A DNA stretch of 63,882 bases, filler included. It is 16 parts of 16 records of this genome, joined end to end, with 100 filler letters (N's around TTAATTAATTAA, not from the genome) between each part and the next. Parts side by side here need not be neighbours in the genome. Positions count along the whole stretch, not along the records: positions 32,515 to 34,774 come from SRR11831580_4583; 15 more parts are not named here. One strand, 5' to 3'. Shown one piece after another: positions 26,789 through 52,783 of the stretch. The position numbers were made by a program, and so were the translations under genes. Below the pieces are notes generated by a model. That model saw nothing but the letters and a program-made list of their open reading frames with translations. It ran no database searches and had not been told where the DNA came from. Position 1 is the stretch's first letter. Every line of letters starts with the position of its first letter.

Positions 26789-26814
26789 ATAAGGCGTTCA
26801 CGCCGCATCCGGCA
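26789..26814. repeat. REP element (partial, at contig end)
   Basis: ATAAGGCGTTCACGCCGCATCCGGCA. Confidence 0.9.
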
Positions 26815-26836
26815 GTTGTGCACCAATGCTGGATAC

Positions 26837-32414: not shown

Positions 32415-32514
32415 NNNNNNNNNNNNNNNNNNNNNNNNNNNNNNNNNNNNNNNNNNNNTTAATTAATTAANNNNNNNNNNNNNNNNNNNNNNNNNNNNNN
32501 NNNNNNNNNNNNNN

Positions 32515-32538
32515 GTGTGTGTGTGTGTGTGTGTGTGT
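32515..32538 (+). repeat. (GT)12 microsatellite, truncated at contig start
   Basis: Direct reading. Confidence 0.98.
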
Positions 32539-33430
32539 TTGTATTTGTTTGAAATTGTTGATTAGAGAGAATACACTGGAGCGTTGCGGCATATAAGGAC
32601 CATCTCTCTGCGCCATCAGCAAACCAAGCAACAGCGGGGACTCAACCAAGATCAAATCAAAGAGTGAGAGGGAGTTGTGTGTGTAATGAATATCTACTGG
32701 GGGCAGCGTGCCGTGCCGCCACTGTCCTTGCCATACTATTTATGCTCAGCACCCAGCACAGCTCAGCCTTTCGGAACGTTAACCAGCTCCCAGACCTAAA
32801 CACACCTTCTCATAAAGAGCATACTGCACACTATTCTTTCACCTTGTGACAGCATCATCAGACGCCATACACACAAGGCTCCATACTAACATAAAGAGAG
32901 GTGTTCTTGTGCATATTCGGATAAACAATGCGACGACTAGCGGGCGTGAAAACGCTTTCGTGCCAGCAGGCAATGTCTGATTGCTGTGTACTAAATGAGC
33001 GCAACATCACTCAGCGGCCGTCGTATAACATGAAGCTGCTGTGTGCTCTCTCCATCACACCTTACTCAACACATGGACTCACGGAGACACCGGAATTACA
33101 TTGACAATTTGGCAAGCGACATCGCGTTCGCACACCGTATGACAGCTCTAGATTCAAATCGTTTACTATTGCCAAAGAAAAAGTCTACTGCCATGCAAAA
33201 ACAAACAACCCGATGTCATTCACCCACAAGAGAGTCGATGTCAATAACCCGCTATCGCCGATGGCGAATCCCGGTTCGTGCCGTCTGTTCATCGGATATC
33301 GCCGCCCATAGCCGATGCATGCCGGAACAGACGGTCGGTATTGCACTGTCTCGCTTGGTTGCGGATGGCTTCGCACACAATTCCCGCACGCACGAACCAA
33401 TCATTGAGACGTGGTGCTGAGAAGTGAGAT

Positions 33431-34197
33431 ATGGAGCCGGAGGGAGAAGGTGGTATGATCAAATGCCCCGCTTGCGGAGAAGACATCGCCAAAGGCGGCA
33501 GGGGCATACAGCAGCACCTGAAATTGAAAGAAGAGAATTCCAACTGCCCCGGGCTTACCGCAGAGATGCGACAGGCCCTGTTAGCGTTGCACAAAACCTG
33601 CCCTGCTCGGCCCAATTTTGCAGATTGTGTGGTATCCTACGCGGTACGGCTCTGCTATACTATCCGTCATTCCCAACATGTACGAACGGTGAGACATTCT
33701 CTTACGCATTCTTGTAGCGAGACAAACAGTGCATGCATCATCAACATAAAAACATGCCAGACTCGCCAGACTTTCCACATATTTCACCACTGAAACAAAA
33801 AGCACAAGGTATTGCCAAAGCGCGACTGGGAGCCGGAGTGGATCTCAATCCGGATCTCGCCGATGAGCCTGTGCCCGGCCGATTCACGCTGTGCACGGAG
33901 CGTGCTCACATTGTGCAGGACGACTTGAAAACATTTTTCTTGTCGCTTGACGCGGACAACCAGGAGAAAATGCGTCAGCTAATCCGTGAGTTTGTTGCCA
34001 TTCACCAACGCCATTTTGTCGACCGCGGGACGCGTGGCTACAATGAATTGATGCACATGATGGAAACCATGGCCGTATTCACAATGCTCATGCACATGGA
34101 GAACTACACCGTGCCCACCGGCGAGATGGATCTCGCACGAGTGTTCGATCAGGCGATGAACCTCAAGAAGGAAGATGCTCCGGGGCCGAGCGAGTGA
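33431..34197 (+). CDS. Predicted two-exon gene (33431-33643 + 33718-34197), 230 aa, N-terminal Cys/His zinc-finger-like region
   Basis: ATG in gatATGG context just after an in-frame TGA; phase-0 GT...AG intron 33644-33717 fuses ORFs 33431 and 33733; CPACG...QQHL motif. Confidence 0.55.
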
Positions 34198-34744
34198 AAC
34201 CCCAAAGAAGGACTTCACATGCTGTGTCTGAGTAAGTGTAGTGAGCGAGTTGAGATGAGTTGAAAAGAAAAGATCATCGTTGTTACTTTGTCAGTTTTCA
34301 AGTGTCATCTCATCCGGCCTCTACAACGCACAAGTCACATCAAAGACCAGCCGCTGTTTATAACGCAACAGTGCGAACACACACTAACACACAAACACTC
34401 TCATACTCCACACACACGGCGCAACGCTAACCAACTACTGTGTGTGTGCGGGTTTCTGTTGTGTGAGCTGCATCACAAAAGCCAGAATTTGACTGGGTAA
34501 CTGCGCTAGCTTGGCCAGAAAGGCTTTGCTGAGATCCGCTAAGATCTGTACACCACACATATAGAAATGAGTATCCACACAGCATACATCTGTTGAGTAT
34601 CCACAAGACACACATATACACAACATTCATACACAATGAGGGAGAGAGAGAAACAGACACCCGGGGGCAACACACACAGTACAAAGGAGACACAGAATAA
34701 ATTGAGAATACAACGAAGGATGTTGCGCGCACACATACGCAGGA

Positions 34745-34774
34745 ACACACACACACACCCACACACCCACACAC
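34745..34774 (+). repeat. Imperfect (CA)n microsatellite at contig end
   Basis: ACACACACACACACCCACACACCCACACAC. Confidence 0.95.
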
Positions 34775-34874
34775 NNNNNNNNNNNNNNNNNNNNNNNNNN
34801 NNNNNNNNNNNNNNNNNNTTAATTAATTAANNNNNNNNNNNNNNNNNNNNNNNNNNNNNNNNNNNNNNNNNNNN

Positions 34875-40143: not shown

Positions 40144-40227
40144 AACGCCTTATCCGGCCTACAAAATCGTGCAAATTCAATACATTGCAGAATTTTCGTA
40201 GGCCTGATAAGCGGAGCGCATCAGGCA
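40144..40227. repeat. REP pair (BIME) after dppA
   Basis: GCCTTATCCGGCCTAC ... GTAGGCCTGATAAG...GCATCAGGCA. Confidence 0.88.
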
Positions 40228-40263
40228 TTTTTGCCTTTGCCATCAGTCTTGTATGGCTTTTAA

Positions 40264-41900: not shown

Positions 41901-42435
41901 TTTAACCCTTTGCAGTGGGTTGTCGCTGCCTGACCTTTTTGTTTTTGCCCGGTCGGGTCAACGTTATGAGGTGGGGATGCCGTACTAATTAACATCAGTG
42001 TAACAGTGCGGATCCTCCATAAAATGCCCCTCGTGACCTACAATCTGTCAACAGAATGTGAAAACGTCAATACAGCCAACCGGGATTTACACCAACGGTG
42101 AGAATCCACAAACAAAGATTAAAAAAACTTCAAACAGCTATTTGCAGCAGAGAAATTTGTGCTACTCCAACATGACCAGAACAATCAGCTTAATATTTAG
42201 CAACATTTGGTGATTAAGTTTTATGCATTTAATGAAAAAAATCTGAGGAAAAGGTGGATATCTGAGCGATTAATACCATGAACGCTAAAACGCACAGCGG
42301 AAAATGCCAGGGCCAGCCATAAGTAACGCAAAAAAAGATTTAAGCAAATATAAAAAAAGACAATGGTTTCTGTCACAAATCCGTTAATGGATAGTGAGAT
42401 ATGGGGCGCAAATTTGGCAGGGAAATGTGTGTCGT

Positions 42436-42514
42436 GTAGGTCGAATAAGGCGGTCGCGCCGCATCCGACAATGGCCGGCACATTTGCCTGATGCGACGCT
42501 GACGCGTCTTATCA
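42436..42514. repeat. REP elements at contig end
   Basis: GTAGGTCGAATAAGGCG...GCATCCGAC and GCCTGATGCGACGCTGACGCGTCTTATCA. Confidence 0.85.
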
Positions 42515-47499: not shown

Positions 47500-47534
47500 A
47501 GTAAGTCGGATAAGGCGTTTACGCCGCATCCGAC
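47500..47534. repeat. REP element at contig end
   Basis: GTAAGTCGGATAAGGCGTTTACGCCGCATCCGAC. Confidence 0.85.
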
Positions 47535-47634: not shown

Positions 47635-47659
47635 ATGTATGCTATACGAAGTTATTACG
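47635..47659 (+). other. Partial loxP within a 454 Titanium paired-end linker remnant
   Basis: ATGTATGC-TATACGAAGTTAT is the loxP spacer plus right arm, followed by TACG as in the linker TCGTATAACTTCGTATAATGTATGCTATACGAAGTTATTACG. Confidence 0.9.
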
Positions 47660-48180
47660 CGTTTTTCTTCGTTAGCCATAATGGCAAACGGGCAGCTTTC
47701 GGTGCTGGCTACGGTGATGAAGTCGGACGGAATAGCGGTAACTTTATCGCCGTGGCTCATCCAGACATCGAGCAGCGGTTTACCGTCTGCGGTCAGCGCA
47801 TCTTCGATACCGCGAACCAGTGCGCTGTCGTTTACGACTTCAACCTGCGCGTAGCCAAATTCACGTTCGTTAGAGGCTTCAACGTGACCGCCCAACTGCA
47901 TTGCCATGGTCTGCATGCCATAGCAAACGCCGAATACCGGTACGCCTGCTTCAAAGACATACTGCGGCGCACGCGGACTGTTTTCTTCAGTAGTACTTTC
48001 CGGGCCGCCGGAAAGAATAATGCCGCTTGGATTGAAGTCACGAATTTGTGCTTCTGTCACATCCCACGCCCACAGTTCGCAGTAAACACCCAGCTCACGC
48101 ACGCGGCGCGCAACCAGTTGAGTGTACTGAGAACCGAAGTCCAGAATGAGGATGCGATGCTTATGAATGTTTTCCGTCAT
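47659..48180 (-). CDS. guaA: GMP synthase, 5' part
   Basis: ILDFGSQY and GVCYGMQ glutaminase motifs; native sequence stops after NEEKR. Confidence 0.96.
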
Positions 48181-48248
48181 TGACGCTTATTCCGAGGCAA
48201 GTGAAACAGATAATATAAATCGCCCGACATGAAGTCGGGCGAAGAGAA

Positions 48249-49715
48249 TCAGGAGCCCAGACGGTAGTTCGGGGACTCTTTAGTAATGGTCACGTCGTGA
48301 ACGTGGCTTTCCTGAATGCCCGCACCGCTGATACGTACAAACTCCGCTTTAGTACGCAGTTCGTCGATAGTACCACAGCCGGTCAGACCCATACAGGAGC
48401 GCAGGCCGCCCATCTGCTGGTGAATGATCTCTTTCAGGCGACCTTTATAGGCTACGCGACCTTCGATACCTTCCGGCACCAGTTTGTCGGCAGCGTTATC
48501 GCTCTGGAAATAACGGTCAGAGGAACCTTTGGACATCGCGCCCAGGGAACCCATACCACGGTAAGATTTGTAAGAACGGCCCTGGTAGAGTTCGATTTCA
48601 CCCGGAGATTCTTCAGTACCCGCCAGCATGGAACCTACCATCACCGCGCTTGCGCCAGCGGCGATAGCTTTGGCGATGTCGCCGGAGAAGCGAATACCGC
48701 CATCAGCGATAACCGGAATACCGGTGCCTTCCAGGGCTTCTACTGCGTCAGCAACAGCGGTAATCTGCGGAACACCGACGCCAGTCACGATACGAGTTGT
48801 ACAGATAGAGCCAGGGCCAATGCCGACTTTAACCGCACTGCAACCAGCTTCTGCCAGAGCGCGTGCACCTGCAGCTGTTGCCACGTTGCCGCCGATAATT
48901 TGCAGATCCGGATATTTAGCACGGGTTTCACGGATACGTTGCAGTACACCTTCTGAGTGACCGTGGGAGGAGTCGATCAGCAGAACGTCAACGCCTGCGG
49001 CAACCAGCGCGTCAACACGCTCTTCGTTACCCGCACCTGCGCCAACCGCTGCACCAACACGCAGACGGCCTTGCTCGTCTTTACAGGCGTTCGGTTTACG
49101 TTCCGCTTTCTGGAAGTCTTTCACGGTGATCATGCCGATCAGGTGGAATTCGTCATCAACCACCAGCGCTTTTTCAACGCGTTTTTCGTGCATTTTTGCC
49201 AGCACCACTTCACGGGCTTCACCTTCACGCACGGTGACCAGACGCTCTTTCGGCGTCATGTAAACGCTAACCGGCTGGTTCAGGTCGGTAACAAAACGCA
49301 CGTCACGACCGGTGATAATACCCACCAGTTCGTTTTCTTCGGTAACGACCGGATAGCCCGCAAAACCGTTACGCTCGGTCAGTTCTTTCACTTCGCGCAG
49401 CGTCGTGGTTGGCAGAACAGTCTGCGGATCAGTCACCACACCAGATTCGTGTTTTTTCACACGGCGAACTTCTTCTGCCTGGCGTTCAATGGACATGTTT
49501 TTGTGGATAAAGCCGATACCGCCTTCCTGAGCCAGAGCAATAGCCAGGCGCGCTTCCGTTACGGTATCCATTGCTGCGGAAAGCATAGGGATATTCAGAC
49601 GAATAGTTTTCGTCAGCTGGGTGCTGAGGTCAGCAGTATTCGGCAGAACGGTAGAGTGAGCAGGAACGAGGAGAACGTCGTCAAACGTCAGAGCTTCTTT
49701 AGCGATACGTAGCAT
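48249..49715 (-). CDS. guaB: IMP dehydrogenase
   Basis: [10 protein letters not shown] active site; CBS pair. Confidence 0.98.
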
Positions 49716-49768
49716 GGGCAATATCTCGACCAGAGTGGTTAATAAATATTGCCGCGGCATTATACAGA

Positions 49769-49784
49769 GCGTAACCGATTGCAT
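49769..49784. promoter_or_regulatory. PurR box overlapping the guaB promoter
   Basis: Minus strand ATGCAATCGGTTACGC; TATAAT at 49764-49759. Confidence 0.75.
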
Positions 49785-49846
49785 CTACCCCTTTTTGCAA
49801 AAAATGCTTGCTATCCCCGAAGGGCGGGTTACTATCGACTGAATAA

Positions 49847-51241
<1,395 letters not shown>

Positions 51242-51245
<4 letters not shown>

Positions 51246-51457
51246 GCCAGCACGAATTCAACGCGTTTTTTCGATATCAAGCCATGCCCGTGCTGACAGA
51301 AGTAATCTACTGCACCACAGGCTTTTAACACCTGCAACGGTTGATGGCAGTCTGGACAAAGAGCTTTCATTTCAATAAATTCCCCGCAGGATCGGCAACG
51401 CGCATGGCCGTTATCCTGATCAAGCACATGCTGACATTGTGGACAATGCAGTTCCAT
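51242..51457 (-). CDS. yfgJ: Zinc-ribbon protein YfgJ
   Basis: 71 aa with repeated CxxC motifs. Confidence 0.88.
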
Positions 51458-51526
51458 ATGAATTCCTCCGGTAGCCATTCCCTCTACATTCATAGAGGGA
51501 ATGGCAGATAAAATACTTACGGATAA

Positions 51527-52783
51527 TTATTTATTTTTCTTGATGTGCTTCATCAGACGCTTACGTTTACGCATCTGGGTTGGCGTCAGGGTGTTACGCT
51601 TATTCGCATACGGGTTTTCCCCTTCTTTGAACTGAATACGAATCGGCGATCCCATTACGTCCAGCGATTTGCGGAAGTAGTTCATCAAGTAGCGCTTGTA
51701 GGAATCAGGCAGGTCTTTCACCTGATTACCGTGAATCACCACAATCGGCGGGTTATAACCACCGGCGTGGGCATATTTCAGCTTCACACGACGACCGCGT
51801 ACCAGCGGCGGTTGGTGATCTTCAACAGCCATCGTCATGATGCGCGTCAGCATAGAGGTCCCCACACGACGGGTGGAGCTGTCATACGCTTCACGTACTG
51901 ATTCAAACAAGTTACCAACACCACTGCCGTGCAAGGCAGAGATAAAGTGCACACGAGCAAAATCGATAAAGCCCAGACGGAAGTCCAGCGTTTCTTTCAC
52001 CTGCTCTTTCACTTCCTGACTCAGGCCATCCCACTTATTCACCACAATGACAAGTGAGCGCCCACTATTGAGAATAAAGCCCAGCAGCGAGAGATCCTGA
52101 TCGGAAATACCTTCGCGCGCATCAATCACTAACATCACCACGTTGGCGTCTTCAATGGCCTGCAACGTTTTGATTACGGAGAATTTCTCTACAGCATCGG
52201 TGATTTTGCCGCGTTTACGTACGCCAGCGGTGTCAATGAGCACATACTCACGTCCATCGCGTTCCATTGGGATGTAGATGCTGTCACGCGTCGTGCCAGG
52301 CATGTCGTAAACAACAACGCGCTCTTCACCAAGAATACGGTTAGTGAGTGTAGACTTACCTACGTTCGGACGACCCACAATCGCCAGTTTGATCGGCAGA
52401 CTTTGCGGGTCGAAGTCGTCTTCCTCTTCTTCTTCGCCGTTCTCTTCCGCTTCAAATTGCGCCCAGTATTCAGCGTCTTCGTCGACTTCCTCTTGCGGTG
52501 CGAGATCTTCCATCCACGGCAGCAGCACATGCTCCAGCAGACTTAATACGCCACGACCGTGAGACGCGGCGATCGGGTAGATTTCACCTAAACCAAGCGA
52601 GTAGAAATCAACCACTGCCTGATCGGGATCCAGACCGTCAGTTTTGTTTGCCACCAGGAAGGTCGGTTTTTCACGGGAGCGCAGATGTTTGGCAATCGCT
52701 TCATCTGCCGGCATCAGGCCCGCGCGCGCATCCACCATAAACAGTACGACGTCCGCTTCTTCAATCGCCAGCAGCGACTGTTC
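51527..52783 (-). CDS. der: Ribosome biogenesis GTPase Der, 5'-truncated
   Basis: Tandem G domains ([20 protein letters not shown]) with acidic linker. Confidence 0.97.

Follow-up and report, generated by a model that had tools for sequence, protein, structure and literature searches.

A probably eukaryotic contig among Escherichia coli contigs: composition, coding content and library context

From which organism does a contig derive that stands among Escherichia coli contigs but has the composition of none of them, and how did it come to be there? The question is raised by a 2,260-nucleotide (nt) segment at 32515-34774 of the window, by which we mean the whole 63,882-nt stretch of DNA analysed here. 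The window is not one molecule: 16 contigs of 2,046-11,977 nt each were joined by 15 identical spacers made up of N44 + TTAATTAATTAA + N44, which are artificial and carry no biology. Two of these spacers, at 32415-32514 and 34775-34874, flank the segment, and no strand is assigned to them or to it. An earlier reading made from the letters of the DNA, here called the sequence-only reading, had treated the segment as a separate contig with no sign of integration into E. coli. The segment is indeed exactly one of the 16 contigs, with N/TTAATTAATTAA spacers on both sides, and no integration is seen, as no physical link to E. coli is visible and artificial sequence bounds it at both ends. We consider it probable that the contig comes from a second organism and is most probably eukaryotic nuclear DNA, which was present in the same library or run as laboratory E. 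coli of the K-12 type and reached the E. coli contigs by contamination or mis-binning.

Foreign composition of the contig

Judged by its letters, the contig at 32515-34774 is foreign to E. coli and should be regarded as no part of an E. coli genome. Sensitive blastn searches with 11-base words found no match to it in 5,426 complete E. coli genomes, in 72,556 plasmids or in 50,697 phages, and blastn against the nearest comparison genome, G001, was likewise empty. These results agree with the earlier observation that it holds no E. coli gene or repetitive extragenic palindromic (REP) element, and the contrary evidence that was to be looked for, namely a phage, plasmid or enterobacterial island matching it at high identity, was not found within these collections. 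The GC content of the contig is 0.496. When tetranucleotide profiles were compared with those of the E. coli contigs, as the sequence-only reading had proposed, the contig was a clear outlier: its correlation to the centroid of the others was r 0.25, vs 0.74-0.96 for those 15. The observed/expected ratio of CA/TG was 1.46 on this contig vs 1.11 in the other contigs.

Both ends of the contig are made of simple repeats. On the + strand, the left end is a (GT)n microsatellite at 32515-32542, in which a perfect (GT)12 at 32515-32538 is followed by a degenerate continuation that Tandem Repeats Finder includes in the array (14 copies, 92% matches). The right end, also given on the + strand, is an A+C-rich degenerate CA tract at 34325-34774; it contains 64% A+C, CA or AC makes up 32% of its dinucleotide steps vs 10-17% mid-contig, and it terminates in an (AC)n / ACACACCC array at 34745-34774. 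The (GT)12 start and the CA-rich last ~450 nt had both been noticed before, and both are borne out well beyond chance: runs of at least four CA/GT units number seven on this contig and one in the other 15 contigs combined.

Intergenic DNA rich in (CA)n/(GT)n microsatellites is known in kinetoplastids, green algae, fungi, insects and many protists. The contig resembles such DNA in its (GT)12, in A+C-rich tracts of hundreds of nt, in its strand asymmetry and sparse coding, and further in a pyrimidine tract and AG shortly before an open reading frame (ORF), but differs from it in having no homology and no marker gene. The combination expected of eukaryotic nuclear DNA, long dinucleotide microsatellites together with sparse coding, is therefore found here, and a eukaryotic nuclear origin is the best explanation because several CA/GT microsatellites occur within 2.3 kb alongside long, strand-asymmetric A+C-rich tracts and ~70-80% non-coding sequence. 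A eukaryotic source is thus most likely on grounds of style only, namely the microsatellites, the sparse coding and the lack of CpG depletion.

The style narrows the source to some extent. The observed/expected ratio of CpG is 0.89, which picks no lineage and shows no depletion of the vertebrate type; vertebrate genomes typically lie far below this value. This speaks against contamination from a vertebrate such as human or mouse, which should bring strong CpG depletion. The source is most probably a eukaryote without heavy CpG methylation. A CA-rich style with a pyrimidine tract and AG before an ORF would also fit kinetoplastids, several algae, fungi and insects. We also rejected the view that the terminal repeats are telomeres of a nanochromosome: the + strand reads 5'-(GT)n ... 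(AC)n-3', so that the strand rich in G would run towards the interior, the reverse of the textbook polarity of telomeres.

Could the contig nevertheless be part of the E. coli strain, as eukaryote-like DNA inserted into its chromosome or a plasmid by horizontal transfer or by engineering? It was filed in the same assembly, and both of its ends stop in simple repeats, with the junctions unseen. Against this, the contig contains not one base of E. coli, insertion sequence, vector or plasmid origin, nothing similar occurs in any of the E. coli genomes searched, and complete K-12 genomes are without it although the host is K-12-like. The sole apparent sign of engineering, a loxP-like element elsewhere in the window, is accounted for by a library linker (see below). 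We regard carriage by E. coli as extremely unlikely, and a natural eukaryote-to-E. coli transfer, integrated or episomal and not the product of cloning, as hardly credible.

Sparse coding and one coding region

The sequence-only reading had described the contig as mostly non-coding, and a count of open frames bears this out. Stop-free frames of at least 150 amino acids (aa) cover 21% of its bases vs 62-100% in the other 15 contigs, and those of at least 200 aa cover 0% vs 36-97%. The contig thus shows neither bacterial gene density nor host-like oligonucleotide composition. Promoter-like and terminator-like sites stand at shuffle level (four sigma-70-like sites vs 2.3, and one terminator-like site vs 2.3), which argues that it is without bacterial organisation. 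The stretch at 32543-33430, to which no strand is assigned, is apparently non-coding: its open frames, 32562-32846 and 33034-33417, have a flat codon-position composition and are without period-3 signal.

Coding signal is found further to the right. Two overlapping ORFs lie on the + strand, at 33431-33793 (120 aa) and 33733-34197 (154 aa), the second of which sits in a stop-free frame of 159 codons that starts at 33718. Within 33718-34197 the composition by codon position is clearly that of coding sequence: the GC content at the three positions is 0.63 / 0.35 / 0.60, and position 1 is G in 33% and T in 12% of codons. The period-3 Fourier signal-to-noise ratio reaches ~6 in windows that cover 33895-34194, stays at about 1 or lower in most other parts of the contig, and is limited to about 33715-34250. 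We accept about 33718-34197 (+ strand) as one real coding region, lineage-specific, from which the ATG at 33733 gives an orphan protein of 154 aa that is predicted, at low confidence, to be helical.

Upstream of this region, the segment at 33431-33631 (+ strand) begins with an ATG and has a coding-like codon-position composition with a weak period-3 signal. Its product has no homologue and begins with a C-x2-C...H...C motif that is zinc-finger-like (C2HC-like). The segment is a possible first exon ahead of 33718-34197, or the start of the separate 120-aa ORF at 33431-33793. If it is an exon, the best-looking candidate intron is 33632-33717 (+ strand), which is 86 nt long, runs from GT to AG with 73% pyrimidines before the AG, and would join the frames into 226 codons. 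The pyrimidine tract and AG before 33718 could instead act in trans-splicing, as the acceptor upstream of the ATG at 33733, and the change of frame could come from a sequencing error, an indel in the A5 run at 33748, or reflect two separate ORFs. The compact genes with short introns of the sequence-only reading therefore stand as a possibility in the form of this 86-nt candidate, but they are unproven, since a frameshift or two ORFs explain the frames equally well.

Relatives and the nature of the source

Several results weigh against a eukaryotic origin, the most general being that none of the searches tied the contig to a eukaryote by a positive match. A phmmer search with the 154-aa ORF against 1.84 billion representative proteins returned 0 matches, and so did word-indexed protein searches with the 154-aa ORF (among proteins of near lengths) and the 120-aa ORF (near or longer lengths). 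When 13 stop-free frames were compared with Pfam, only sub-threshold scores were obtained (DUF7501 at 17.4 bits vs 27, Zn_ribbon_3 and zf-DBF), and PHROGs gave nothing above noise for the same number of frames, with one score of E = 0.022. The PDB held 0 matches for one ORF and a single match of E = 0.61 for the other. Scans with Rfam and for transfer RNA (tRNA) found no ribosomal RNA (rRNA), tRNA or small nuclear RNA (snRNA) on the contig. The gene model is touched as well. Of 1,000 dinucleotide shuffles, 199 contain a stop-free frame at least as long as that of 159 codons, and as the length of the ORF is therefore not significant, the argument for a gene is the codon-position bias and the period-3 signal. 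In addition, 42 GT..AG pairs lying 40-300 nt apart would join both frames in frame, so that such pairs are no better than chance and carry no weight alone. The splice-like GT/AG signals are thus the one weak element of the sequence-only reading's description. Finally, the separateness of the contig from E. coli follows only from the absence of E. coli sequence on it.

By tblastn, the 154-aa ORF had no match in the phages or plasmids, and no related locus was found for it in metagenome contigs of the Joint Genome Institute (JGI), in GTDB species genomes or in IMG/VR. The 67-aa N-terminal piece yielded three metagenome loci and one genome locus, each an 18-residue match around CPACG, and no viral-contig locus in IMG/VR; the two of these four loci that were read are unrelated zinc-ribbon starts and were rejected as relatives. 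In Rfam, only SCARNA7 was reported, at 14.9 bits vs a gathering score of 65, and no family exceeded its threshold. Homology to a eukaryotic gene or to a eukaryote-specific RNA (snRNA, small nucleolar RNA or rRNA) was accordingly not found in the protein and Rfam searches. No public sequencing runs are listed as containing the contig, RNA runs included.

AlphaFold2, run on the single sequence of the 154-aa ORF, gave a helical model with a mean predicted local distance difference test (pLDDT) score of 47.9, too poor for a fold search, and the ESM Atlas held no usable match for this ORF. For the N-terminal 67 residues, the nearest clusters in the ESM Atlas were labelled 'C2H2-type', at 0.92, a value that 4-10 of 100 shuffled proteins also reached, and this similarity is a lead only.

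How far, then, does the claim of DNA from a second organism hold? The part that names a second organism is well founded in the lack of E. coli, plasmid and phage matches, the outlier composition, the microsatellites and the sparse coding, whereas the word eukaryotic goes without a positive match. Because the coding region has no homologue among the 1.84 billion representative proteins, the source may tentatively be pictured as a eukaryote or large virus without a sequenced close relative, a proposal to which we give limited credence.

A source that is not eukaryotic at all, either a large DNA virus or a prokaryote (bacterium or archaeon) with no relation to E. coli and with an unusually gene-poor and repeat-rich region, seems to us quite unlikely. 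It would fit the lack of a positive eukaryotic match, and orphan ORFs without relatives are typical of viral dark matter. However, the bacterial contigs have coding densities of 62-100%, far above the 21% found here, PHROGs gave only noise, and neither IMG/VR nor the GTDB species representatives nor the JGI metagenomes held a related locus. The repeats bear on this alternative from both sides. Of 201 genomes sampled from the same bacterial family, 2 contain an exact (GT)12, which speaks for such a source, but three contigs, maybe contaminants, hold all of the occurrences, and the several CA/GT arrays within 2.3 kb speak against it.

The positions of (GT)12 in these two genomes are G056:C31:82-107, G056:C68:20-47 and G093:C51:9870-9893, and in two of the three contigs the array lies within ~100 nt of base 1. 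The (GT)12 contigs in G056 and G093 may also be eukaryotic contaminants.

In another view the contig is no real locus but an assembly artefact, in which low-complexity or erroneous reads were joined into a chimera. An untrimmed linker was kept in the assembly, so read cleaning was imperfect, and both ends of the contig are of low complexity. The interior of ~2.1 kb, however, is unique and non-repetitive and contains a localised, strong period-3 signal, and no linker motif lies inside 32515-34774. We therefore think an artefact very unlikely, and a eukaryotic second organism is retained as the preferred source.

Library context and the route into the assembly

The rest of the window indicates what kind of data the contig was assembled with. 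Each of the other 15 contigs matches G001 along almost all of its sequence, and they are ordinary E. coli. The four contigs tested were all 100% identical to several complete genomes, and the best matches shown for them include K-12 MG1655, C600, J53 and the laboratory strain ER1709. The E. coli contigs, which begin at 1, 2147, 6893 and further positions up to 60190, are 2-12 kb long and several end inside unique genes, which suggests that E. coli contributed to the data at low depth and was not the isolate that was sequenced. The contig to the left of 32515-34774 carries ybhF-ybhR-ybhS and the one to the right carries feo/yhgF/rpnA, and these two lie 2.7 Mb apart on G001. Since 32515-34774 is bounded only by artificial spacers, its place between these neighbours says nothing on linkage.

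A trace of the library itself is found on another contig, 47635-52783, as context outside the main finding. At 47635-47659 (+ strand), 25 of 25 nt equal the 3' end of a 42-nt Cre-lox linker, and from base 25 onwards this contig matches K-12, with the junction falling midway along guaA. The linker motif has one match in the whole window, at 47643-47655. The methods of the guppy (PMC5199103) and Cinara cedri (PMC7038657) genome reports give the sequence of this 42-nt circularisation linker, and in both, libraries of this kind served to scaffold animal genomes. The contig at 47635 thus combines identity to the published linker of the Cre-lox ('454-type') mate-pair protocol, 25/25 nt as given in these sources, with an arbitrary genomic junction; it differs from the full linker in having the terminal 25 nt only, as the contig starts inside the linker. 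At first sight this loxP half-site might mark a cloning vector or an engineered strain, a reading that we rejected since all 25 nt are those of the mate-pair linker. Segment 47635-47659 is untrimmed library linker and neither strain engineering nor a disruption of guaA.

The linker implies that a mate-pair library went into the assembly and that its linkers had been trimmed incompletely. Together with E. coli of the K-12 type, it points to a mixture at the level of the library, probably a eukaryote project or a clone pool with laboratory E. coli. The sequence-only reading had guessed at a bacterivorous protist such as a choanoflagellate; a library mixture fits the context better than a predator-prey culture, given the K-12-like E. 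coli and the untrimmed mate-pair linker.

The clone pool deserves separate mention. The contig might be a cloned insert from a bacterial artificial chromosome (BAC), fosmid or plasmid clone pool of a eukaryote in a K-12 host, with the E. coli contigs as carry-over. It would then have been inside E. coli cells but on a vector, which makes this a sub-case of the second organism by another route. The E. coli is laboratory DNA of the K-12 type that assembled poorly, into contigs of 2-12 kb, which is usual for host carry-over in clone pools, and the library linker is present in the window. Yet no vector sequence is joined to 32515-34774 in the one window of the assembly covered, PLSDB gave no DNA or protein match, though cloning vectors are poorly represented there, and the window's only loxP-like element is explained by the 25 nt of mate-pair linker. 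On balance we find a cloned insert rather unlikely.

The events behind the contig may be pictured as follows. Laboratory E. coli DNA would have been sequenced together with a eukaryote, or with DNA of that eukaryote cloned as a pool in K-12, and one 2.26-kb piece of the other genome would have come along when E. coli-like contigs were collected. This piece would carry one lineage-specific coding region (about 33718-34197, + strand), perhaps after the zinc-finger-like exon at 33431-33631. Its ends at (GT)n and (AC)n could be explained if an assembler working with short words was halted by a microsatellite motif found repeatedly across the source genome.

Prokaryotic assemblies are well known to contain contigs that come from another kingdom by contamination or mis-binning, a class catalogued by Conterminator (PMC7218494), FCS-GX (PMC10898089) and GUNC (PMC8201837). 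The likeness lies in a short contig of alien composition, unrelated to the labelled species and unlinked to its companions, in a fragmented draft with imperfect clean-up. The difference is that these tools label contaminants by a match to a known genome, whereas 32515-34774 matched no reference in the collections searched. The contig is one more case of this class and calls for no new mechanism.

For quality control, the contig should be removed or flagged, lest its ORFs become E. coli 'hypothetical proteins' or give rise to claims of horizontal transfer. It adds nothing to E. coli biology, and once its source is named it would yield at most one orphan eukaryote gene. The untrimmed linker in guaA is a sign of incompletely cleaned data and can be mistaken for an engineered loxP site.

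Two minor observations concern the E. coli contigs. Their identities to G001 are 91-100%, percentages that are unfit for strain typing, as G001 is reported to be 44% complete; we suspect that N stretches in G001 lower these values. REP-type repeats, each with dozens of matches in G001, are found at starts or ends of E. coli contigs (40144-40250, 42435-42514, 26789-26816 and 47501-47534). As E. coli contigs end at these elements, the assembler broke at repeats of ~30-100 nt, in the same way as at the microsatellite ends of 32515-34774.

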